From a virus (taxonomy: Duplodnaviria; Caudoviricetes): a stretch of DNA of 64,000 nucleotides. The stretch lies in the IMG/VR virus record IMGVR_UViG_3300028832_000123, positions 15,508 through 79,507 of that record; one strand, 5' to 3'. Position numbers and translations under genes: made by a program. Shown here piece after piece: positions 11,596 to 22,763 of this stretch (within the stretch, counting starts at the first letter, position 1; each line of letters opens with the position of its first letter). The notes below the pieces were generated by a model, which was not told where the DNA came from, made no database searches, and worked only from the letters and a program-made list of their open reading frames with translations.

Positions 11596-11946
11596 ATGCG
11601 TACATTTGGCGAGAATTTGCGAGAATTGCGTAAAAGCAGAGGATACAGTCAGGAGAAGTTTGCGGAAGTAATAGGAACAAAGCAGGTCAATGTCAGCGCA
11701 TGGGAACTTGGCACACGTGTACCGTACCTTGCGACGATCCGTGGCATTGCCGAAACCTTTAAGGTTCCGCTTTCCTCCCTGATATCCATCGAGCAGACAG
11801 GACTTGACGAAGACTACATAAGTTCGGTTTCGGAAGCGATCAAGACCGAACCGAAACTGCGGGAGATCCTTGACAAGATCCTGTACATGCCTTCCTCTGA
11901 CCTTGACGCTTTACTCGGAATCATTAACGCAATGACAAAGAAATGA
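11596..11946 (+). CDS. CI-like XRE repressor
   Basis: FGENLRELRK..GYSQEKFAE.IG....VSAWELG.R.P; cotranscribed with the integrase. Confidence 0.88.
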   Translation: MRTFGENLRELRKSRGYSQEKFAEVIGTKQVNVSAWELGTRVPYLATIRGIAETFKVPLSSLISIEQTGLDEDYISSVSEAIKTEPKLREILDKILYMPSSDLDALLGIINAMTKK

Positions 11947-13073
11947 ATTGTATCAAATGTAAAGCCATTATTCCAGATGGATCCGCATACTGCAACTACT
12001 GCGGAAAGAAACAGTCTGTTGAAAAAAAGCGCTCCAGAAAGACCCGTGGCAATGGGATGGGATGCGCTTATCGCCGTGGGCAGACATGGACCGCTTGCGT
12101 AACAATCGGATGGAAAACTCCTGCTGACCCGTCCAAACCGAAAACACCTATCCGGCGCACGAAGGGCGGTTTCCCGTCGAAGAAGGAAGCAATCGCATAC
12201 TGTCCAGCCCTGCTTGTGGGCGGGATCGCAAAGCGACAGGAAGCCCCAAGACTGTCAGAGTACTGGAAGACATACTCTGAAGGGCGTATGCTTACACTCG
12301 GAAAGAATACACAGTCCGCATACCGTACCGCATGGAAGAAACTGAGGGCCGTACATGATATTCGTGTAGACAGTATTACTGTTGAACTTTTGCAGAACAC
12401 AATTGACGAAACGTGTCATTCACACGACACTGCCGGAGACTGCAAAAGTTTATTATCCAATTTATTTGCGCTTGCAGGGGCGGAACAAACCGCAAACAGT
12501 TCCCTGCCTTCCTTTATTGTATTGCCAGCCTATGCGGAAAAGGAACGGGAAGTCTTTACTGCTGAAGAGCAGGTCGCTTTATGGAAAGCATATGATAACG
12601 GAGACATTCGTGCAGCCGTACCGCTTCTTATGATCGCTACAGGTATGATGCCAGGTGAAATGCAACAGCTGAAGGCAGAGAACATAGACATCAACGGAAG
12701 GGTTATCGTGCGATCCGGATTGAAGACAGCTGTACGGAAAAGCACACCGATAGTTTTGTCGGACTCGATTACTCCGGTTGTGCGGGATCTGATTGAAAAC
12801 GCACAGCTGTCCGGATATCTTTGGAAACGTGACGAGAAAGCATGGTATAAAAACTACTATGATATCCTTGAGCTGTCCGGATGCCGTCGCCTGACTCCGT
12901 ACTGTTGCCGGCACACGTGCGCAAGCAATCTTTCCATTGATAAAAACATTCCATCGCAGACAATCCGTAAGGTTATGCGATGGAGCACGGCAAAGATGCT
13001 GGATCGGTACAGTCATCCGTCTACTGAGGATGCACTCGCTGCGGTGAACACGGTCACACGCCCTGATGTATAG
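11943..13073 (+). CDS. int: tyrosine integrase
   Basis: TGM.PGE (box I with Arg replaced), PYCCRHT, MRW and RYSH catalytic boxes; N-terminal zinc ribbon and arm-binding region; adjacent att site. Confidence 0.92.
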   Translation: MNCIKCKAIIPDGSAYCNYCGKKQSVEKKRSRKTRGNGMGCAYRRGQTWTACVTIGWKTPADPSKPKTPIRRTKGGFPSKKEAIAYCPALLVGGIAKRQEAPRLSEYWKTYSEGRMLTLGKNTQSAYRTAWKKLRAVHDIRVDSITVELLQNTIDETCHSHDTAGDCKSLLSNLFALAGAEQTANSSLPSFIVLPAYAEKEREVFTAEEQVALWKAYDNGDIRAAVPLLMIATGMMPGEMQQLKAENIDINGRVIVRSGLKTAVRKSTPIVLSDSITPVVRDLIENAQLSGYLWKRDEKAWYKNYYDILELSGCRRLTPYCCRHTCASNLSIDKNIPSQTIRKVMRWSTAKMLDRYSHPSTEDALAAVNTVTRPDV

Positions 13074-13302: not shown

Positions 13303-14280
13303 TCATTCCTCATACCCAGCCATGTATTTTGACAGGTCAAGTTCTTCTCCTCGTGACGGGCAAAGGAACACCCCGTCATCTTCCAACCTGTCAACATATG
13401 GTGTGAATTGTTCTTTTAATAATCTGTTCAGTTCAGGAACAATTCTTACCGGCTTTGCGTTCAATATGCTATCAAGACACCATTCACAGTCTCCGAATAT
13501 CCGGCTGAATGATGATTTTGTCAAAACAACATTGCGTTCCTGAAGCAACTTGATCATGGCCCGTGGGAATTCAAGGTGCAACGCAAAGCATTCCGCTTCT
13601 GTTGTTGCTTTATCTGATCCTATAATATTGAAACCATGCCCAAGATAAATATGTCCAAGTTCAATAGCAATTGCAAGCTTTAGCTTTCCGAGAGGAGCAT
13701 TGCGCCTGACAGCAAACAGATAATGTTCGTGTTCTCTATCGTCAGCAATAACAGATGTCATGACCATGTCGCCCTGCTGACTGCTCATTACTGCGTTTGT
13801 TTCACACAGGTCATCCAGTTCCGATTCATCTTCAAATGATACAATGGAAGCACGTTCTGATGCCTGAAGAATCTGTTGAGGATATATTGGCGTTCTCGAT
13901 ACGTTGAATTTAATCAGCGCACGGGCTGCCTGTGTTGCTGCGGTAGTACAGTCTATGGTTTTCTTTCCTGTTTCTTTCCAATAGATTGTATTGTTCACCA
14001 TTTCAAATTGGTGGATCAACGGTGTACGTAATTTATCTGCAACGATTTCAAGGTTGTCTCCTGGATCGCCCAGTCTTTCGCTGGACCAGCCCATGAGGTA
14101 CGGTCTGCTTACATTAAATAAAATAGCAAGCTGATGAACACGTTCCGGCGGGATGTTCGTGATAAGACCATGTTCATACTTATATACTGTGGCTCGCTGA
14201 ATACCCAAATATGTAGCAATGTCATTGAGTGACATTCCTTTTTCTGTTCTCAATTCTCTTAATCTGTCCGCAAATGTCAT
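13303..14280 (-). CDS. XRE HTH fused to a degenerate ImmA/IrrE-like domain
   Basis: N-terminal HTH; AIELGH and EAECFA resemble AHELGH and EAN.FA. Confidence 0.75.
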   Translation of the reverse strand: MTFADRLRELRTEKGMSLNDIATYLGIQRATVYKYEHGLITNIPPERVHQLAILFNVSRPYLMGWSSERLGDPGDNLEIVADKLRTPLIHQFEMVNNTIYWKETGKKTIDCTTAATQAARALIKFNVSRTPIYPQQILQASERASIVSFEDESELDDLCETNAVMSSQQGDMVMTSVIADDREHEHYLFAVRRNAPLGKLKLAIAIELGHIYLGHGFNIIGSDKATTEAECFALHLEFPRAMIKLLQERNVVLTKSSFSRIFGDCEWCLDSILNAKPVRIVPELNRLLKEQFTPYVDRLEDDGVFLCPSRGEELDLSKYMAGYEE

Positions 14281-14388: not shown

Positions 14389-14440
14389 TGTGTATCGTAA
14401 TAAGTCACGTATACTAAATAAGTTACAAAGGAGAATCTGC

Positions 14441-14710
14441 ATGAACATCGAATCTGTATTTCTGAACTTGGTGGATGCTGGACTTATGGCGAAAAAGATG
14501 GACAAGGCAATGCAGGACGCTGGGTTCGATAACAACCCGTACTTTGAAATCTACGGTTGTGTGGCCCAGGCGATTATTCACATGCTTGGTGAAGCAGAAA
14601 AGGACTTTGAGAATACGGATGCTTGCTATGCTCTGTCTGATAAGATCCACGGCAGGAAGGAACGTGTGCAGTATCTCGTTGATGCTTATAATAAAGTTTC
14701 ATCTCAATGA
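14441..14710 (+). CDS. hypothetical protein, paralog family member B
   Basis: AAGGAG RBS before ATG 14441; AKKMD.AM..AG..NNPYF. Confidence 0.75.
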   Translation: MNIESVFLNLVDAGLMAKKMDKAMQDAGFDNNPYFEIYGCVAQAIIHMLGEAEKDFENTDACYALSDKIHGRKERVQYLVDAYNKVSSQ

Positions 14711-15487: not shown

Positions 15488-15561
15488 GCTCCCATAGTCC
15501 AATTGGAAGAGACATCGGATTTAAGCTCCGACATGTCAGGGTTCGAGTCCCTGTGGGAGTA
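15488..15561 (+). tRNA. tRNA-Leu(TAA), short variable loop
   Basis: TCGGA-TTTAAGC-TCCGA; discriminator A. Confidence 0.8.
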
Positions 15562-15611
15562 CTACAGTCACATAAACATGTGGCTCATAAAATAATATGG
15601 AGGGATTGCCC

Positions 15612-15896
15612 ATGAATATGGAGAAGGCTTTAACGGAACTTGTCAGCGCTGTAAAAACGGCAAAAAAGATGGACGAAGCAATGCGGGAAGCAGGATACGA
15701 AAATAACCCGTACTTTGACATCTGGGGAAACATTGCAGAAGCGGTCTATGCATTGCTCGATGAGCACACAGATACATTCGACAGCTCTGTAACAGCGCAA
15801 GTCATCAGAGATATGGCAAACGTCCCAATCAACAAAGCCGTAGATATCCTTTGGGCAGTCTTCAAGCGAAAAGAACTGTTATCCGATCCAAAGTAA
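15612..15896 (+). CDS. hypothetical protein, paralog family member C
   Basis: GGAGGG RBS; strong by-eye match to 14441-14710. Confidence 0.75.
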   Translation: MNMEKALTELVSAVKTAKKMDEAMREAGYENNPYFDIWGNIAEAVYALLDEHTDTFDSSVTAQVIRDMANVPINKAVDILWAVFKRKELLSDPK

Positions 15897-15897
15897 A

Positions 15898-15930
15898 AAT
15901 CACCCCACTCCAGTCTGGAGTGGGGCTTTT
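15898..15930. terminator. bidirectional terminator between convergent operons
   Basis: AAAAA..CCCCACTCCAG-T-CTGGAGTGGGG..TTTTT. Confidence 0.8.
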
Positions 15931-15932
15931 TG

Positions 15933-16247
15933 TTAATACCTGTACGGGGGCATCCATTCCGGATAGTGTCCTGAATAATCATATCCAGGATACATGTCAC
16001 GGCTCGTATACCTTCCCATGCTGTCACGTCCTCTGCGGTAAGAACGTCCGGATGCGTCCTTGTCTTCCCATCCGTCAGCGTCTTTCATCGCATTGTACGT
16101 GGCTGCACATTTCAGAGCATGATACAGGATATCAGCACGTTCAACATCCTGCACAGACATTTCCGGAAGATCTTCCATGTACTTCTTATCCAGTCTGTCA
16201 AGCTCTTTGCACATTGCTCTTTCGAGGTGCTCGTAATGATTTGCCAT
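15933..16247 (-). CDS. hypothetical protein (post-lysis module)
   Basis: RRGRDSMGRYTS motif; RBS GGAGGT. Confidence 0.75.
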   Translation of the reverse strand: MANHYEHLERAMCKELDRLDKKYMEDLPEMSVQDVERADILYHALKCAATYNAMKDADGWEDKDASGRSYRRGRDSMGRYTSRDMYPGYDYSGHYPEWMPPYRY

Positions 16248-16262
16248 TGCTCTTCACCTCCA

Positions 16263-17021
16263 TCACGCAGCAGGAGCGGTGGTGGTGGTGACAGGATAGC
16301 GGTTAACAAAGAACTGGGTCTGTGCGGTCAGGGCGTTCTGAATGTAGTTGTTGCTATTCAGAGCGGTGATCTGCCGTTCCAGGTCTGCGATGCGCTCATT
16401 CTTCGCATCGATCTTGTCGGCGCACATCTGATCGAGGATGCGCTGAATACCCATGTTCTGGTTGGTCAGGATGTCACGTACGCCATCGGACAGCACCTGC
16501 CGGTCCGCACAATGTTCTGCCAGGATCGTGGAGGTCTGATTGGCTGTGGCAAGCCTGTTTTCGCAACAGCAGGAGGCCAGTTGGCTCTGCATGCCGTTGA
16601 ATCCCTGCATGGTAGCCATCTGCGCCGCGAAGTTCTGTTGCATTCCTGCGATCTCACGGGCGTTGGCCCCGATCTCAGCCTGGGCAAAACCATTGGCGAT
16701 GTTGCTGTTAACGCCGGCAAAACCGGAACACAGGGAAGTCTGGAGGTCGCCGAAACCAGAAGTAACAGCGTTCTGAACTCCGGTAATACCGGAGATCACA
16801 GCGGACTGGTCAAAGCCACGCTGTACGTCGTTGTTGACCATCATCGGTCCCATGCCGTTACCGCCACCGAAACCACCGAAGTTACCGCCCCAGCCACACA
16901 GCACGATCAGCAGGAGAATAAATCCCCAGCCACCCATGTCGCCAAAGCCACCCATACCGCCGTTACCGTAACCGCCCATAGGAGCCACGGGCATCACGAT
17001 GTTGCCATTTGTGTCAGTCAT
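16263..17021 (-). CDS. Gly-rich, membrane-anchored coiled-coil protein with a CCC motif
   Basis: G/M-rich N-terminus, TM WGFILLLIVLC, SCCCEN, C-terminal coiled coil. Confidence 0.8.
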   Translation of the reverse strand: MTDTNGNIVMPVAPMGGYGNGGMGGFGDMGGWGFILLLIVLCGWGGNFGGFGGGNGMGPMMVNNDVQRGFDQSAVISGITGVQNAVTSGFGDLQTSLCSGFAGVNSNIANGFAQAEIGANAREIAGMQQNFAAQMATMQGFNGMQSQLASCCCENRLATANQTSTILAEHCADRQVLSDGVRDILTNQNMGIQRILDQMCADKIDAKNERIADLERQITALNSNNYIQNALTAQTQFFVNRYPVTTTTAPAA

Positions 17022-17205
17022 TGTTTTTGATTCCTTTCGTTTTTATTTTTCCAATCGTCTATGCGCACTCGACGAAAAGAATCAAAGTGTTTATTCCATG
17101 CATTATTTTGAACGAAAATACCTGTTTTCATTCAAAAAGCGTGAAAATAATGCACGGTATTAACATTATTAACTTGAAACCAACTTGGAAAAACTTGCGA
17201 CTTAA

Positions 17206-17318
17206 TTCCAAGTTAGTATCAAGTTTAGTATCAAACTTGGAAAAATTGGCCTGTTTTTTCCAAGTTAGTATCAAGTTTAGTATCAAACTTGGAAAAATTG
17301 GCCTGTTTTTTCCAAGTT
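17206..17318. repeat. 52-bp tandem repeat (about 2.2 copies) with internal palindrome
   Basis: TTCCAAGTT starts at 17206, 17258 and 17310. Confidence 0.9.
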
Positions 17319-17370
17319 AACTTGCCTGTAACTTGCTGAAGCTTTAATTATTCAGCATCAAAATCGCTGT

Positions 17371-17400
17371 AAGTAAAGAAAATCAACGGTTTCTTTACTT
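17371..17400. terminator. hairpin (possible terminator)
   Basis: AAGTAAAGAAA...TTTCTTTACTT. Confidence 0.55.
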
Positions 17401-17416
17401 GACGGTTACTTGATTA

Positions 17417-17629
17417 TCATCTTCCAAGCATTTGCCTTGCCCACTGGATCTGTTCCTGTGTCACGGTACCGGTCTGCTGAAGCCAGTTGAGAAGCTGCCC
17501 AGGATCATTCCGTACTTCTGCCGGCGCATTGGGAAAAATCTTTTGCACCATCATCTGCGGGTTCTGGAACTGCTGGGCCAGTTGCTGTACCTGTTGCATG
17601 GCATTCTGAATCTGAAATAAAGGATTCAT
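17417..17629 (-). CDS. Q/M/N/P-rich small protein
   Basis: MNPLFQIQNAMQQ...; coupled to the upstream gene. Confidence 0.7.
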   Translation of the reverse strand: MNPLFQIQNAMQQVQQLAQQFQNPQMMVQKIFPNAPAEVRNDPGQLLNWLQQTGTVTQEQIQWARQMLGR

Positions 17630-18078
17630 TACACTTCCCCCTTCGCTTTCCGTCCGGATATACTCAGGCTGTCTATGGTTTCCATCAGTTCTTCTTTCAT
17701 TCTGTCAAGGTCTTCCTTGCGTACATATTCGCTCAAATCAGGCTGTTTTGCCGTGCCGTCAAAGCCGGATGACTTCTCGCCCGTCTGCACTCCTTCGAGC
17801 GTGTAATGTGCCTTCTGAAGCGGATTAGGCATGCCCATCGGGTTAATGCTCTTAAGATAGATTACAGTGTCGTTCGTGTCCCACAGGGCAATCGGTTTGT
17901 TACAGGGCCATCCCTGTGGCATCTGATACGCTTTGGCTCCAACCTCTCCGTCAACCCAGATCAGTCCCTGTGCCTGCGATTCCTGGTTTGCAAAGGACAT
18001 CTGTGTCCCTTGCAGATTCGGGTATACCTGTTGCCCGTAGTTCCATGACGGCTGGTATGTTGCCGGCAGATAACTCAT
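17629..18078 (-). CDS. hypothetical protein (post-lysis module)
   Basis: Q/Y/P-rich N-terminus, WVDGEVGAKAY...LWD...IYLKS. Confidence 0.75.
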   Translation of the reverse strand: MSYLPATYQPSWNYGQQVYPNLQGTQMSFANQESQAQGLIWVDGEVGAKAYQMPQGWPCNKPIALWDTNDTVIYLKSINPMGMPNPLQKAHYTLEGVQTGEKSSGFDGTAKQPDLSEYVRKEDLDRMKEELMETIDSLSISGRKAKGEV

Positions 18079-18081
18079 AAC

Positions 18082-18459
18082 TCATTCCTTCTTTCTGAAA
18101 TAAAATGAAAGTGTTTCGTTTCCGCTGTCCCACGAATCCAGATAATCTCCATTACGTATGCATACTGCGTGGCTGCCTGTGCCTACAATGTACGTTCCTT
18201 CAGGATACATATCGCAGAACTCCCTTACGGTTATGCATTCCGGACAATGTCTCGGCAGCAGGAACGGCTCAAAACCACGGTCATACAGGTACATACCCCA
18301 TACATGGTTCACGCTGGGCATACTGCATTCCGACCTGCCAACACGGCACAGATCGTCGTACACCTTGTACCAGTCTTTTCCGGTTGCAAGGCATATCGCC
18401 CTGATCACACAGTCCGGTTCAGTCCTGCCGAGCGGATTCGGATTTGCATAGATCCACAT
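18082..18459 (-). CDS. putative papain-like cysteine peptidase
   Basis: NPNP...DCVIRA (Cys), SHAVC (His), YLDSWDSG (Asp). Confidence 0.6.
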   Translation of the reverse strand: MWIYANPNPLGRTEPDCVIRAICLATGKDWYKVYDDLCRVGRSECSMPSVNHVWGMYLYDRGFEPFLLPRHCPECITVREFCDMYPEGTYIVGTGSHAVCIRNGDYLDSWDSGNETLSFYFRKKE

Positions 18460-18461
18460 CG

Positions 18462-18641
18462 TCAGGCGCACTCCGGACTAATGCCACAGTCTGTAAGGAT
18501 CATGTCAGCAACAGAATCATCATCCGGATACAGGTCCATCAGTGTGGCTGTAAGGAGCATCATGGCATATGCAGTCTCCGGACTTGCTCCGATTGCTGAA
18601 ACTATCCTGTCAATGTTCTTTTTGCATTTGCGTGGGTACAT
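18462..18641 (-). CDS. small hypothetical protein
   Basis: GGAAGGTG RBS, coupled to the downstream gene. Confidence 0.5.
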   Translation of the reverse strand: MYPRKCKKNIDRIVSAIGASPETAYAMMLLTATLMDLYPDDDSVADMILTDCGISPECA

Positions 18642-18676
18642 CCGAAACACCTTCCTTTCGCTTAAAATTGTGCAAT

Positions 18677-18712
18677 AAAAAAGGCCTACCCACAAGTTCG
18701 TGGATAGGTCTT
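18677..18712 (-). terminator. intrinsic terminator
   Basis: GACCTATCCAC/GTGGGTAGGCC followed by a T-tract on the minus strand. Confidence 0.7.
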
Positions 18713-18829
18713 CAACGGTTCATGTTTGGTTCATTTACGGGTCATGTGAAATAGAAATGTACAATTTAACGAATAGCTTTTTCGGTCGGGAAATTTGGGG
18801 TGCAATAGCGTCCTTATCATGGCTCCGTT

Positions 18830-20407
18830 TTATTGGCTGTTCACATAAACTGTGTTGTCAAGATCACGATAGTCTGTAATATACGTTGAATCCAATCCAA
18901 ACACACAACTTGACGAACTTGAATCTACGATATTGTAATAACCGTAGATGCTTCCTTTTTGTGCTGTTGAGTGAATAACTCTTGTGTGATTTGTTTTGAA
19001 TCTGCAACTATCCAGAATCAGTTTCCCATTTGCATCAAATATCACGCTGTAACCTTGTGCAATAATATCGCACTCCTTAAATGTGACATTCGTTTTGAAC
19101 GTTGTACTGAGCGATGTGTTTACAAGCCTTCTGCCGCTCATTTTGCAATTATGGAAGAGGACATTATGAACCGCATAAGCACCAACGTTTAACCTTATGT
19201 CGCAATTTATGAACTGAAGGTTTACATTCATTTCTTGCATTGCGATCAAAGGCTTATCTGTTCCATCAACATGATAGATTGTGCAGTTTTCAAACACTAC
19301 GTTAGGAGCAGTATTTGAAGCATAATAAGTCATAATTATGGAGGAGTTACCGGAAACCATATCCTCTGAATAATGATTGTGCATGGCAATAATTGCATTT
19401 TTAATTATCATGCACGTATTCGGTTCTGTTGATGCAAAGTGAGAACATTTTGCCGTGATATTATCGACAATAACGTTTGAGTTTCCAGCTTCACCTTCCT
19501 GCTGTGTTGCACTTTCAATCAGTATCACATCATCAGAGTAAGCGTTCCCATTGAACGCTAAATTTGTAAGGTTTATGTTTTTCAGTTTTGTTGATCCATA
19601 GAACATGTGATAACCGCCCGGAGAGATAGCCATATCATCAAAAATCCAATCGGTTATGGAAAGATCACTGATGTTTTGACAATATATCCCCATTCCGCAG
19701 TTATTCATTTCTATATCGTTCATGCAGATATTACGTGTTCTGTAATCTGCTTCTGAACTTGCTGTGTTCCACGTTCCAATCGTGAAACAATAGCCGATCT
19801 GTATAAACCGTAATTTTGCAAATGTTATAAATGAGCAGTTGTCTATTGTAAAGACATGAACATTTGACAATAAAGCACCTGTCCGAACAGAATGTTCCCC
19901 CGGTGAATCAGGCGTTTTATCGTTTGTTGATTTGAATGTAAGTCCTTCAACGTGTATGTTTTCACACTCCAAGAAGTCAAACAAACGGCTGTTTGCTGCT
20001 GTTGAGTGCTTATAAATAGATCCTGTGCCTATAATCTTGATGTTTTGTTTGTTCTGTATCCTGATTTCAGAATCACAGATATATTCCCCATTCATCACAT
20101 AAACAGGAGAATCTACCGCAAACATAGCAGCTATGGCTGTGCTGTCATCTGTCACCCCATCACCTTTCGCACCGTACATTTCCGGTGTCAAATAAGGAAT
20201 AACGTTGCTTGCTATGTCAGAAACAGGAATCCCTGTTTGCGGTTTTTGATATGCCGTATCAGCAAGACCAAGAGAATCCTGCACACCGGATGATAAATCG
20301 GTGTCAGGGATGCCACCACTCGGCTTTGTGTATTTGCCCTCTATTCCGCTCTTAATATCCTCAAAATCTTTCTTGAAAAGCCCTTTTATAAATGCTAAGT
20401 CCAACAT
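18830..20407 (-). CDS. right-handed beta-helix (pectate-lyase-like) protein, putative depolymerase
   Basis: TPEMYGAKGDGVTDDS.AI motif followed by N/I/T-rich beta-helix repeats. Confidence 0.8.
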   Translation of the reverse strand: MLDLAFIKGLFKKDFEDIKSGIEGKYTKPSGGIPDTDLSSGVQDSLGLADTAYQKPQTGIPVSDIASNVIPYLTPEMYGAKGDGVTDDSTAIAAMFAVDSPVYVMNGEYICDSEIRIQNKQNIKIIGTGSIYKHSTAANSRLFDFLECENIHVEGLTFKSTNDKTPDSPGEHSVRTGALLSNVHVFTIDNCSFITFAKLRFIQIGYCFTIGTWNTASSEADYRTRNICMNDIEMNNCGMGIYCQNISDLSITDWIFDDMAISPGGYHMFYGSTKLKNINLTNLAFNGNAYSDDVILIESATQQEGEAGNSNVIVDNITAKCSHFASTEPNTCMIIKNAIIAMHNHYSEDMVSGNSSIIMTYYASNTAPNVVFENCTIYHVDGTDKPLIAMQEMNVNLQFINCDIRLNVGAYAVHNVLFHNCKMSGRRLVNTSLSTTFKTNVTFKECDIIAQGYSVIFDANGKLILDSCRFKTNHTRVIHSTAQKGSIYGYYNIVDSSSSSCVFGLDSTYITDYRDLDNTVYVNSQ

Positions 20408-20411
20408 GTTT

Positions 20412-20648
20412 TTACACCTCGCTCCACGTGCCGGCGTCAGCATTAAATGTCTTCACATCTCCGGTATCTACTTCAAGAAAACACGATCCGGAGCAGATCC
20501 GGATAACGTTGTTGCCATCATGAACCTCAGTAGGTTTTGTGTCTGTAGACAGGCCGGAGAATGAAAAGTATCTCATGTTCGGAACAAGCGCCATTGTTGC
20601 GTCACGGGCCGGTCTACTTCCTGTAATATACACACTCATGTTCATCAT
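20412..20648 (-). CDS. small hypothetical protein
   Basis: GLSTDTKPT...GS.FLEVDTG...FNA...W. Confidence 0.7.
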   Translation of the reverse strand: MMNMSVYITGSRPARDATMALVPNMRYFSFSGLSTDTKPTEVHDGNNVIRICSGSCFLEVDTGDVKTFNADAGTWSEV

Positions 20649-20708
20649 TCCTTTCTGTTGAAATAATGCGGTACACTTTCAGTTGTCCTTACTCATATAC
20701 CGCACTGC

Positions 20709-20942
20709 TTAATATTTGTTATACTCCTCTTCCATTATTCGGAATATCTTATGTCCGCCATTATGAACCTTTCGCTTTATTGTAGAATCTGACAGGTGAA
20801 ATTCTTCTTCCAGTTCGCCAATCGTTTTATCGTCTACATAAAATCTGATCAGCAGCTGTCTGTCTATATCCCCCTGTATGAATTCTTCTGTTAGCTCACG
20901 GAACCGATGGTTGCTGAATATCTCTGGTTTCTGTTTTTTCAT
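20709..20942 (-). CDS. small HTH (sigma region 4-like) protein
   Basis: DRQLLIRFYVD.KTI.EL.EEF.LS.STIKR. Confidence 0.7.
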   Translation of the reverse strand: MKKQKPEIFSNHRFRELTEEFIQGDIDRQLLIRFYVDDKTIGELEEEFHLSDSTIKRKVHNGGHKIFRIMEEEYNKY

Positions 20943-21220: not shown

Positions 21221-21430
21221 TTATTCCTCGTCTTTCGGCGCTTCAGGGATGCCTGTAGCCATTGCCAGGAGGATAGAACATACGAATCCGAATGCACCAG
21301 CTGACAGGGCACCAATCCAGTTCACGTCCCCCAGTACTACAGCGCCACCGCCAATGAAAGCGAGGGCGCTTTCCGCAAAAGTCCGGATACCACGAATCAG
21401 GGCTGCCTTCCAAAATTTCCAAGTGAACAT
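21221..21430 (-). CDS. holin (r1t-like)
   Basis: FWKAALIRGIRTFAE.A....G......VNW...S...G.PE. Confidence 0.88.
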   Translation of the reverse strand: MFTWKFWKAALIRGIRTFAESALAFIGGGAVVLGDVNWIGALSAGAFGFVCSILLAMATGIPEAPKDEE

Positions 21431-21923: not shown

Positions 21924-22763
21924 TTAATACTTTCCTTTGCCGTCCCCGACAATGTCCAGGAACTGTGCCATCATGTACCAGCCTTTACGCTTACCGCAGT
22001 TGATCTTTGCCCATTCTTCTCCCGGGTCGATGATCGTAACCTCAGTACCGCATGGGATGCTGTCCCATGTTTTGCAACTCGTGCTCGGATATTGTCGCAG
22101 TTTCACGGGCTTTCCGTTGTCCGCCACAACAATTGCCTTACAGTCAGAAGTCGCAATCGGTTCCTTAATGATGTCTTCGGCTTTACTCGCCGTTGTACCG
22201 CCGTCTTTGCCGGCGGCATCCACAATCGGTTTTGCCTTACCGTGGTAATTCCATCCGCCGTTCAGGTTGGTGTCAACCTTCATGCGGGGGCTGGTCATGT
22301 GTGTAATTTGCAGAGGACTCACGCTCGTTACTGCCCCTACGTGATAGTAGTCATTAAGGTCGTGATTGTAGTATGCTCCGGTAGGTTTATATCGGTTCGG
22401 CAAATCATACTTGTGTGATATGGATCCGCCGTTACATGCCTTTCTTACTCTTCCGTCTTTGTCGCATGCCTTGTAAATAACATCGCCGAGTTCGAGGTCG
22501 GATACCCGTTCGATATACTCAAGGTCTACCGTCTGGTATCTGGCTGCGTAGTTACTGCCGTGGATGCCTGTCCACTTCAGGCCCATCCGCTGGATTGCTC
22601 CGATGATCAGCCCGATACAGTCGCAGGTCCCGTCCGTCCCGTCCCCTGGCTGTTTGTATGCAGGGTTTAGGGATTTGATCTTGGCGATCATGGAGAGAAA
22701 CTTCGTTACGAGTTTTTTGTAGGCGTTGATAACAGCCTGTGCCAGACTTTTGAACACGCTCAT
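21924..22763 (-). CDS. endolysin (NlpC/P60-like Cys peptidase plus SH3)
   Basis: CDCIGLI, YYHVG catalytic motifs; C-terminal VKLRQYPS...W.KI...GWYMM SH3b. Confidence 0.85.
   Translation of the reverse strand: MSVFKSLAQAVINAYKKLVTKFLSMIAKIKSLNPAYKQPGDGTDGTCDCIGLIIGAIQRMGLKWTGIHGSNYAARYQTVDLEYIERVSDLELGDVIYKACDKDGRVRKACNGGSISHKYDLPNRYKPTGAYYNHDLNDYYHVGAVTSVSPLQITHMTSPRMKVDTNLNGGWNYHGKAKPIVDAAGKDGGTTASKAEDIIKEPIATSDCKAIVVADNGKPVKLRQYPSTSCKTWDSIPCGTEVTIIDPGEEWAKINCGKRKGWYMMAQFLDIVGDGKGKY

Follow-up and report, generated by a model that had tools for sequence, protein, structure and literature searches.

What are the six small genes that lie near the lysis genes of a phage, and do they belong together? 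The question arose from a 64,000-nucleotide stretch of Caudoviricetes DNA (the window; positions 15,508 to 79,507 of IMG/VR record IMGVR_UViG_3300028832_000123), in which a preliminary description, made from sequence alone, had pointed out six co-oriented genes comprising a small protein, a predicted Cys-His-Asp peptidase, two glutamine-rich proteins, a glycine-rich membrane protein and a protein with an RGRDSMGRY motif. We found that this observation holds, with two corrections, and that the genes are a reduced copy of a 5-8 gene cassette found beside the lysis genes of very many gut and rumen Bacillota phages, for which no function has been described in the sources we searched. The best, though tentative, reading is that the cassette builds a protein assembly on the host membrane around lysis.

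The locus and its relatives

All six open reading frames exist on the minus strand, at 15933-18641. They do not, however, follow the lysis cassette directly, as had been stated, since a 77-aa HTH gene, a 78-aa gene and a 537-aa pectate-lyase-like gene (18830-20942) lie between. The second correction concerns the coiled coil of the membrane protein, which is inferred only from sequence pattern and weak Pfam coiled-coil hits.

Co-occurrence of the genes and the absence of a described function had been named beforehand as the points on which the proposal would stand or fall, and both came out in its favour. The suggestion that similar gene sets occur in gut Bacillota phages was verified: synteny holds, far beyond chance, in the 126 related loci that we retrieved, and the same order (peptidase, Q/Y/P protein, Q-rich protein, spacer, Gly-rich membrane protein, RGRD protein) recurs in about 110 of them, at 25-65% protein identity. 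These include Butyrivibrio phage Ceridwen, which has no integrase, is probably virulent and infects Butyrivibrio fibrisolvens, a host not known to sporulate. Lysis genes lie within six genes of the cassette in 77 of 120 unique loci, upstream in 66 and downstream in 15, so the link holds in either order. We found no described function in four family libraries, the PDB or the literature searched; no module protein gave an accepted hit to Pfam, NCBIfam, PADLOC (ten proteins tested) or PDB sequences, and the PHROG hits are all to families of unknown function.

The genes form two tightly packed blocks. Block 1 consists of the small protein (where present), the peptidase, QYP149 and Q70; block 2 consists of Gly252, a head protein (cluster c3, where present), RGRD104 and, in some loci, a protein of cluster c9. 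Median intergenic distances within blocks are 0, -8, 12 and 13 nt, against 78 nt for the spacer between them.

Candidate control elements upstream of the cassette

The 77-aa protein (20709-20942, minus strand; cluster c6) resembles sigma-70 region 4, with weak Pfam hits to Sigma70_r4_2 (E 5.6e-4) and to the Mga HTH, both below cut-off, and is a candidate dedicated regulator of the cassette. In this window the 78-aa and pectate-lyase-like genes separate it from the module, but an HTH gene of cluster c6 or c14 lies within two genes upstream of the first module gene in 60 of 107 loci with enough flank. Three direct repeats ATGA(A/C)CC spaced exactly 11 bp, followed by a possible fourth degenerate copy, lie at 18717-18745 (minus strand); this is the only such array in the window, and many relatives have 11-bp-phased repeats of other sequence (TGCAC, TGATAC, TTGCAT) in the same spacer. 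The array is a candidate operator for the HTH protein, whose binding is inferred. Next comes an intrinsic-terminator-like hairpin with a 10-bp stem and a T-run (18685-18708, minus strand), judged from sequence to insulate the cassette from the upstream late genes. An equivalent hairpin plus T-run precedes the first module gene in most relatives, and FindTerm predicts a terminator at the same place in the Ceridwen record. An extended -10-like element, TGCACAAT (18667-18674, minus strand), lies 26 nt upstream of ATG 18641 and is a candidate promoter of block 1 by consensus match only; TGn(T/C/G)AnAAT-like motifs follow the T-run in many relatives. At the other end the cassette is closed by a bidirectional terminator-like hairpin (15901-15926), with a 10-11-bp stem containing 7 GC pairs and T-runs on both strands.

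Block 1 encodes a predicted papain-like peptidase

The small protein (p77/p59) has an open reading frame at 18462-18695 (minus strand), but alignment with relatives places its start at ATG 18641, giving 59 aa (18462-18641) with a GGAAGG Shine-Dalgarno sequence. It carries the conserved pattern YP.KC...TAYAMMLLTA.LMDL.P.DD...DCG, has no family hit, and was found by HMM only in the closest relatives (13 of 127 sources), where it abuts or overlaps the peptidase gene by -4 to 0 nt.

The peptidase candidate (pep129) has an open reading frame at 18082-18471 (minus strand), open to GTG 18471, with a likely start at ATG 18459 (MWIYANPNP), giving a stand-alone protein of about 125 aa (18082-18459) that contains the motifs DCVIRA, SHAVC and YLDSWDSG. 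It matches phrog_3754 (E 1e-28, unknown function). Its AlphaFold2 model is confident (pLDDT 92.3, pTM 0.87), and in a wide VIA-align structure search nearly all of the top 50 chains were papain-like Cys peptidases or amidases, including Josephin (Z 7.3, over 104 residues), the C39 domain of PCAT1 (7.2), staphopain C (7.1) and the C39 domains of LahT and ComA (6.9). These Z-scores are moderate, in the range that the tool regards as possibly a common arrangement, and Foldseek against the PDB was weak (E 0.24). In 35 sequences D19-C20, H100, D111, W113, S115 and C75xxC78 are invariant, with C20 at the start of a helix (20-29), and Cys, His and Asp are kept in the divergent downstream form. The protein thus has the alpha+beta fold and the Cys...His...Asp order of clan CA, supported at the level of the predicted fold and of invariant residues. 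It does not belong to the C39 leader peptidases by profile (no Pfam, NCBIfam or PDB-sequence hit), no ABC transporter was found in any of the 126 loci, and the longer forms that we found carry other, unidentified domains. It also has a conserved NPNP motif and a CPxC motif of its own. In four related loci (L069, L081, L084 and L124) a small HExxH protein, a putative metallopeptidase, occupies the peptidase slot, which points to proteolysis as the needed activity. The peptidase family, however, also occurs alone in Bacillus, Geobacillus and Lak phages, so its target need not be a module protein.

QYP149 (17629-18078, minus strand; 149 aa) has a Q/Y/P-rich N-terminus, a small conserved beta-rich core (IWV.GE.GAKAY ... 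LWD ... IYLKS) and a C-terminal helix. It matches phrog_21718 (E 6e-12) and was found by HMM in 93 of 127 sources, always directly after the peptidase gene (median gap 0 nt); one natural peptidase-QYP149 fusion protein, P0121, exists. Q70 (17417-17629, minus strand) is a 70-aa protein with 26% Gln and four invariant Pro; its BLAST cluster has 91 members in this slot, and it overlaps QYP149 by a median of 8 nt.

The spacer and a conserved hairpin

The spacer of 395 bp contains three 52-nt repeat units (17182-17337, minus strand) carrying TTGGAAAAA-N9-TTTTTCCAA palindromes (5 matches against 0.5 expected). The same palindrome follows the Q70 stop in L036/L088 of the related loci, and in relatives the spacer is variable and an insertion hot-spot. 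In the leader of the Gly252 gene (17027-17085, minus strand) a 13-bp outer stem pairs TTGATTCTTTTCG with the Shine-Dalgarno region CGAAAGGAATCAA, and an inner hairpin at 17055-17075 shows the self-complementary hexamer TGCGCA in an 11-nt loop. The predicted RNA fold has -17.6 kcal/mol (z -3.18; 0 of 200 shuffles as stable). A hairpin presenting a GC-rich self-complementary hexamer (TGCGCA 32, GTGCAC 10, GCGCGC 5 and others) occurs upstream of the gene in 66 of 113 unique loci, against 11 (max 20) in shuffles, and the stems vary in sequence but stay complementary. Searches of Rfam returned only chance-level miRNA-type hits in the window and nothing at gathering score in ten loci. The purine-flanked hexamer, kept self-complementary while its sequence changes, resembles kissing-loop hairpins such as the HIV-1 dimerisation initiation site; here, however, it lies in a phage mRNA leader or intercistronic site, dimerisation would be inferred by analogy alone, and a palindromic DNA operator is not excluded.

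Block 2 encodes a putative membrane-anchored stalk, with a head protein in most relatives

The central protein, Gly252 (16263-17021, minus strand; 252 aa), has an N-terminal MPVAP motif, Gly-rich flanks (residues 1-62 are 35% Gly), one hydrophobic segment (WGFILLLIVLCGW; Kyte-Doolittle 2.2 over 15 residues), GF-punctuated 11-residue-repeat helices, the SCCCEN motif, a coiled-coil-like region LDQMCADKIDAKNERIADLERQ and 7 Cys. It matches phrog_16490 (E 8e-21) and has at least 7,893 homologous clusters at 90% identity in public metagenomes, none named and none with Pfam domains. A low-confidence ESM Atlas model resembles apolipoprotein A1/A4/E-type helices (TM 0.66). The N-terminal motif lies about 21 aa before the hydrophobic core and reads MPVxP, followed by Gly-rich sequence, in 59 of 107 sequences, whereas 11 of 107 fit LS..D(I/V)AAV.G(G/N) and read like double-glycine leaders, e.g. 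LSAADIAAVTG(G/N); most do not fit the double-glycine consensus. The class of N-terminal motif tracks the class of peptidase (80/81, 13/13, 2/2), a correlation confounded by shared ancestry. RGRD104 (15933-16247, minus strand; 104 aa) has a helical N-domain and an Arg/Gly/Tyr/Asp-rich tail with an invariant R..GRY; it was found by HMM in 91 of 127 sources, downstream of Gly252, and has no family or PDB hit. CC/CCC motifs recur in the module proteins.

Most relatives carry a seventh gene, c3, whose modelled product (pLDDT 94.3) is a TNF/C1q jelly roll. Its best PDB matches by Foldseek are F-BclA CTD, ExsF, ExsFA, BxpB and BclA (9h38, 9h3d, 7r1m, 8d02 and 1wck; E 2e-7 to 3e-5, TM 0.6-0.74). By sequence it does not belong to this family, since three c3 proteins gave no Pfam hit (BclA_C included) and the c3 profile no PDB-sequence hit; nor did ten Gly252 N-termini, including MLVGPT forms, hit the exosporium-leader model TIGR03720 at E up to 10. 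c3 covaries with a Cys-rich tail on Gly252: 91 loci have both, 12 have neither and 8 are discordant (Fisher 6e-10, not corrected for phylogeny). The phage studied here lacks both; no c3 match was found in its complete 79,507-bp genome, so any analogy to a head rests on relatives.

A tentative model and its alternatives

The interpretation offered in the preliminary description, a coherent system such as a protease-matured, disulfide-linked filament or coat, or a host-envelope or sporulation modulator, is partly supported. Coherence is strongly supported, and the papain-like peptidase is supported as above; the filament or coat gains only indirect support, from the constant presence of a peptidase or its HExxH substitute, the covariation of head and Cys-rich tail, and the recurring CC/CCC motifs; a role as sporulation modulator is not supported.

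What our analysis establishes is the two-block architecture with its spacer and conserved hairpin, the terminator-like hairpin, phased repeats and, usually, small HTH gene that precede it, the predicted papain-like fold with invariant Cys/His/Asp, and the head-tail covariation in relatives. The rest, including expression timing, cleavage, membrane insertion, topology, oligomers and cross-links, is inferred. In this view the HTH protein, made with the lysis genes, would switch the cassette on late in the lytic cycle, and the peptidase would mature a module protein, most likely at the conserved N-terminal peptide of Gly252 or in its neighbour QYP149. Gly252 would insert into the cytoplasmic membrane by its single hydrophobic segment, its short acidic N-tail probably facing out and its large helical domain probably remaining in the cytoplasm, because every partner lacks a signal peptide. 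It would oligomerise through its coiled coil and Cys clusters and recruit the low-complexity Q-rich and RG/Tyr-rich proteins into a membrane-bound lattice or nap, which lysis would then expose or release. Disulfides, however, are not expected in a reducing cytoplasm or an anoxic gut, and the Cys clusters could bind metal instead; likewise, the terminator and sigma-A-like -10 element fit autonomous (lysogenic) expression just as well. We think that the benefit to the phage lies at or after lysis, for example in coating or holding together membrane remnants, and not in the virion, the lysogen or the spore, but that part is a guess.

The closest precedent is the BclA/ExsFA(BxpB) hairy nap and the ENA tip fibrils of Bacillus cereus-group spores, in which BclA loses an N-terminal leader by proteolysis, docking occurs on ExsF and ENA parts are joined by CC-motif connectors (PMC12357932), in parallel to the peptidase, the Pro-kinked N-terminal peptide of the stalk and the CC/CCC motifs of the module. 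The phage stalk, however, is predicted to be alpha-helical with a hydrophobic anchor and not collagen, the head is a separate polypeptide, and the system is phage-encoded beside lysis genes, in hosts that include non-sporulators.

Two alternatives, about as likely as each other, are less likely than this model. The first is a lysogenic-conversion or superinfection-exclusion cassette, a moron expressed from its own promoters in the lysogen that would place a complex at the membrane to block DNA entry by other phages or change the host envelope. In this window the genes sit in the classical slot between the late genes and the immunity/integrase region (integrase 11943-13073, repressor 13303-14280), and in Dulem virus 33 just upstream of an integrase; terminator-like hairpins flank them, sigma-A-type extended -10-like motifs precede them, and the central protein is a putative membrane protein. 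On the other hand, the cassette is conserved as a multi-gene unit over very diverse phages, is present in Ceridwen and, mid-genome, in 95-140-kb phage contigs, and is tied to the lysis genes, with the HTH gene at the end of the lysis operon. Known exclusion systems are single small proteins, whereas this is six to eight genes with a peptidase, and PADLOC gave no hit.

The second is a lysis accessory, in which Gly252 would act like an i-spanin, a membrane disruptor or a lysis-timing regulator together with holin and endolysin, to complete or time envelope breakdown, with the other proteins as cofactors. The link to lysis genes on either side, the apolipoprotein-like amphipathic helices of the low-confidence model, and the N-terminal hydrophobic anchor, coiled-coil-like region and conserved Cys, as in lambda Rz of the Rz/Rz1 spanins, favour it. 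Most hosts, however, are monoderm Bacillota, no lipobox protein that could serve as o-spanin was found in the module in any locus, no holin or spanin family was hit, a terminator-like hairpin separates the cassette from the lysis operon, as a putative separate transcription unit with 4-7 further proteins, and the jelly-roll head, the Q-rich and RG-rich proteins and the peptidase have no counterpart in known lysis systems.

Virion decoration, with Gly252 (and c3 in relatives) as a head or tail fibre docked through its Pro-kinked hook and the peptidase and low-complexity proteins as assembly factors, is improbable. TNF/C1q-like heads are common on viral fibres, a cyanophage portal-tail complex chain was among the c3 hits, MPVxP recalls the F-ENA hook M-P-psi-psi-x-P-psi (PMC12357932), and fibre, collagen-like and depolymerase genes lie nearby in several loci; but a strongly hydrophobic segment is unusual for an external fibre, the genes lie outside the morphogenesis block behind a terminator-like hairpin, and this phage keeps the hook but has no head. 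A spore-surface or sporulation role, in which the phage would add nap-like parts to the host spore or interfere with coat assembly, is very unlikely and already largely refuted as a general one, because, despite the exosporium and spore-appendage matches of c3 and Cys-, Tyr-, Gly- and Gln-rich compositions that recall coat proteins, the only cultured hosts identified (Butyrivibrio fibrisolvens, Butyrivibrio sp. and Selenomonas sp.) are not known to sporulate, Ceridwen is probably virulent, and no exosporium-leader or coat family was hit.

Implications

The cassette recurs in phages of Lachnospiraceae, Ruminococcus, Oscillospiraceae, Erysipelotrichaceae, Selenomonas and others, yet no library or paper that we could search names any of its parts, which makes it one of the commoner unexplained gene sets of gut and rumen phages. 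It brings with it a large, uncharacterised family of small phage cysteine peptidase candidates, a candidate activator-operator pair and a conserved hairpin absent from Rfam, and the full cassette is carried by Butyrivibrio phage Ceridwen and its cultured host, where its role is directly testable. A bolder reading, unlikely but compatible with the evidence, is that gut and rumen Bacillota phages carry a dedicated, separately regulated 'very late' programme that builds a spore-nap-like layer on the dying host's membrane, with a membrane-anchored coiled-coil stalk, a BclA/ExsF-like head and Cys connectors, all matured by a cysteine peptidase, and with its main operon controlled through a kissing-loop-type RNA hairpin; this would be a viral structure that acts after lysis, for instance by cloaking receptor-bearing debris or holding progeny and membrane together. 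If the cassette builds a membrane-bound assembly at lysis, it would add a stage to the phage life cycle that current models lack, and would also show that the building blocks of spore appendages are used outside sporulation.

Genomic context of the cassette

The window derives from a complete 79,507-bp phage genome with direct terminal repeats (bases 15508-79507). Reading down the minus strand, the region begins with an endolysin with an SH3_3 domain (21924-22763), a membrane/coiled-coil protein and an r1t-type holin (21221-21430), followed by a 77-aa sigma-region-4-like HTH protein (20709-20942), a 78-aa protein and a 537-aa pectate-lyase-like protein (18830-20443), after which come the six genes under study. 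The 537-aa protein is a pectate-lyase/rhamnogalacturonase-like beta-helix protein (Pfam E 7.6e-9) which, together with the 78-aa gene, is inserted between the HTH gene and the cassette, whereas in most relatives the HTH gene sits directly upstream of the cassette. The six genes end at a strong bidirectional terminator-like hairpin (15901-15926), beyond which lie six plus-strand tRNAs, a repressor and an integrase. Two paralogous proteins of about 100 aa (14390-14710 and 15597-15896, both on the plus strand) bracket the tRNA array, and their homologues sit on the opposite strand just downstream of the cassette in four of the related loci we fetched (L004, L005, L036 and L038). All sequence features listed in the preliminary description of the six genes are present, and that observation holds. 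Alignment with relatives set two of the start codons: the first gene starts at ATG 18641 (59 aa) and the peptidase gene at ATG 18459.

Conservation of the gene set

A nucleotide search of phage records found nothing. tblastn found the 252-aa Gly-rich protein (Gly252) in Butyrivibrio virus Ceridwen, Dulem virus 33 and other records, with the same neighbours in the same order. We then fetched 43 IMG/VR loci and 80 loci from bacterial genomes and MAGs, and searched the 126 loci plus the window (127 sources) with family HMMs. Gly252 was found in 125 sources (by construction, since loci were chosen through it or the peptidase), the peptidase in 110, the Q/Y/P-rich protein QYP149 in 93, the RGRD-motif protein RGRD104 in 91 and the Gln-rich protein Q70 in 52 (91 by BLAST clustering). 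The canonical string is lysis genes, HTH gene, the 59-aa protein p59 (not always present), peptidase, QYP149, Q70, spacer, Gly252, c3 (a protein cluster absent from the window), RGRD104 and c9 (a further cluster). Chance juxtaposition of these genes is refuted by this synteny.

Genes within each of the two blocks abut or overlap (median 0, -8, 12 and 13 nt), while the spacer between Q70 and Gly252 has a median of 78 nt and is an insertion hot-spot (L002:5064-5615, L035:7156-8510 and L039:7161-7748); examples are an opposite-strand endonuclease gene in Dulem virus 33 and runs of small ORFs in other contigs. In the window the spacer carries 52-nt repeats (17182-17337) with the palindrome TTGGAAAAA-N9-TTTTTCCAA. 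This palindrome also occurs once right after the Q70 stop codon in a relative with about 60% protein identity (L036:7148-7174; L088:7629-7655), and the element is therefore not private to this phage.

A second layout occurs in about 16 loci, mostly binned to Erysipelotrichaceae, Bacilli or 'Tenericutes' MAGs, in which a divergent peptidase sits last and a different Q-rich protein (c11) sits first. Homology of c11 to QYP149 was not supported (hhalign probability 2.5%), and we keep the two only as positional analogues. In several loci (L080:11270-12304, L083 and L059) a GT2 glycosyltransferase (Pfam E 2e-26) directly follows the second-layout cassette. In four loci (L069:10542-10748, L081:10304-10621, L084:10331-10546 and L124:2240-2557) a mini HExxH (HELMH) protein of 70-106 aa, preceded by an Arg/Asp/Tyr-repeat protein, occupies the slot of the cysteine peptidase, which looks like non-orthologous replacement of one protease by another.

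Lysis genes lie within six genes of the cassette in 77 of 120 unique loci, on either side of it. Hosts, by record title, include Butyrivibrio, Pseudobutyrivibrio, Ruminococcus, Lachnospiraceae, Oscillospiraceae, Acutalibacteraceae, Erysipelotrichaceae and Selenomonas; a few Bacteroidales and Proteobacteria bins are probably mis-binned phage contigs. Gly252 has at least 7,893 homologous clusters, none with a name or a Pfam domain.

Predicted protein components

Scans of all six proteins and of clusters c3, c9, c11, c22 and c42 against Pfam, PHROGs, NCBIfam and PADLOC gave only PHROGs of 'unknown function', and profile searches of PDB sequences with five family alignments (A1, A2 of Gly252, A3 of QYP149, A5 of RGRD104, and A7) gave nothing credible. 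For the peptidase, the AF2 model is confident (pLDDT 92.3), and a structure search independent of Foldseek listed almost only papain-like cysteine peptidases (Josephins, C39 leader-peptidase domains, staphopains, PeiR and others), with Z about 7. D19-C20, H100 and D111 are invariant. The same small fold is common, and uncharacterised, in many unrelated phages: BFVD holds 22 structural relatives from very diverse phages, none with an assigned function (one is labelled only 'Thioesterase domain-containing protein'). Close sequence relatives, at 30-39% identity, occur as single genes among early or unknown genes, without the rest of the cassette, in Bacillus phages Kirov, Tsamsa, Izhevsk and Thrax1-4, in Geobacillus GBK2 (L127) and in Prevotella Lak megaphages. 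An alternative reading, a transglutaminase acting on Gln-rich substrates, is weakened by the HExxH protease found in the same slot.

In Gly252, a conserved N-terminal peptide lies about 21 residues before the only hydrophobic segment; it reads MPVxP in 59 of 107 sequences, MLVxPT in 17, a double-glycine-leader-like LSAADIAAVTG in 11 and xPTVELAT in 10. Although MLVGPT resembles the BclA motif, the exosporium-leader model TIGR03720 gave no hit on Gly252 N-termini, and membership of that family was dropped. Gly-rich flanks follow, then GF-punctuated 11-residue repeats, which the ESM Atlas model renders as apolipoprotein-like helices (the Atlas added only this shape for Gly252, and nothing for QYP149), and then CCCEN, an invariant LD..C.D motif and a coiled-coil-like stretch. 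Most relatives end in a Cys-rich tail (CP.P...PVYG...C..GCGCG) that the window's protein lacks. A bacteriocin precursor is unlikely, because there is no exporter and the product would be about 230 aa, and a TOMM-like precursor, suggested by the GCGCGCG tail, is unlikely because there is no cyclodehydratase.

The c3 protein, which the window's phage lacks anywhere in its genome, is predicted (pLDDT 94) to fold as a TNF/C1q jelly roll, and its best PDB matches are the F-ENA tip fibril head, ExsF/ExsFA/BxpB and BclA. Presence of c3 and of the Cys-rich tail of Gly252 go together: 91 loci have both, 12 have neither and 8 are discordant, and several of the discordant cases look like frameshifts or divergent c3. 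Judged only by their different C-terminal sequences, and not on a tree, the 12 double losses look like more than one lineage. The window's phage, having no c3, is a headless variant. QYP149, Q70, RGRD104 and p59 have no detectable relatives of known function in the searches above, though one natural protein fuses the peptidase and QYP149.

Candidate control elements

Upstream of block 1, the window has three ATGA(A/C)CC repeats at exact 11-bp spacing (18717-18745), followed by a terminator-like hairpin with a 10-bp stem and a T-run (18685-18708), and then by TGCACAAT, 26 nt before the start codon. Relatives show the same layout with different repeat words.

Upstream of Gly252, a predicted hairpin at 17055-17075 shows TGCGCA in its loop and is nested in a 13-bp stem that pairs with the Shine-Dalgarno region (z -3.18). 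RNAalifold predicted no consensus on the window-type leaders, because MAFFT misaligned the arms, and we therefore used our own census of hairpins. A hairpin presenting a GC-rich self-complementary hexamer is found in 66 of 113 unique loci, against about 11 in shuffles, and its stems differ in sequence yet remain complementary. Many relatives (L027:5900-5995, L001:5712-5827, L048:2330-2431 and 14 more, alignment A8) have a longer leader, in which the self-complementary-loop hairpin is followed by a stem on conserved ACCGRCU...AGYCGCUNACC and by a third hairpin overlapping the Shine-Dalgarno; compensatory changes occur in 5 of 7 predicted pairs of the middle stem. Rfam has nothing like it, and this leader is a candidate new cis-regulatory RNA. 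The self-complementary-loop hairpin might act as RNA (translation control or loop-loop pairing) or, alternatively, as a DNA operator; the variable complementary stems favour a single-stranded form.

Possible role of the cassette

The above results show a self-contained cassette, separately regulated as judged from its sequence elements, in which a peptidase is always present and a predicted membrane-anchored, Cys-rich stalk protein is the hub; in most phages that hub pairs with a predicted head protein of the kind that tips spore appendages. Beyond gene order, conserved residues, predicted folds and sequence elements, what follows is inferred, including proteolytic cleavage, membrane insertion and topology, assembly, regulation and the timing of expression. 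Published work on spore appendages gives precedents in the removal of an N-terminal leader (BclA), the docking of Pro-kinked N-terminal peptides into clefts of jelly-roll trimers (ExsF, F-ENA) and CC-motif connectors (PMC12357932). No module protein has a signal peptide, and we therefore place the large domain of Gly252 and its partners in the cytoplasm, where they would be assembled on the inner face of the membrane and exposed by lysis. The interpretation in the preliminary description, of a coherent system such as a protease-matured, disulfide-linked filament or coat or a modulator of the host envelope or of sporulation, is partly supported.

Three things point to a role in the lytic cycle around lysis rather than in lysogens or spores: the presence of the cassette in the probably virulent Ceridwen, whose host is not known to sporulate; its linkage to the lysis genes on either side; and an HTH gene at the end of the lysis operon. 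We hold this reading only tentatively. Lysogenic conversion or exclusion and, equally, a lysis accessory function remain possible but are less likely, a virion fibre is unlikely, and a spore modifier is very unlikely.

The cassette is not a member of any family or system that we could test, and literature searches found no description of it. The combination of genes, its regulation as inferred here and its place in phage genomes are undescribed in the libraries and papers searched, while the cassette borrows a known fold, as predicted, for the peptidase and, in relatives, also the BclA/ExsF fold.
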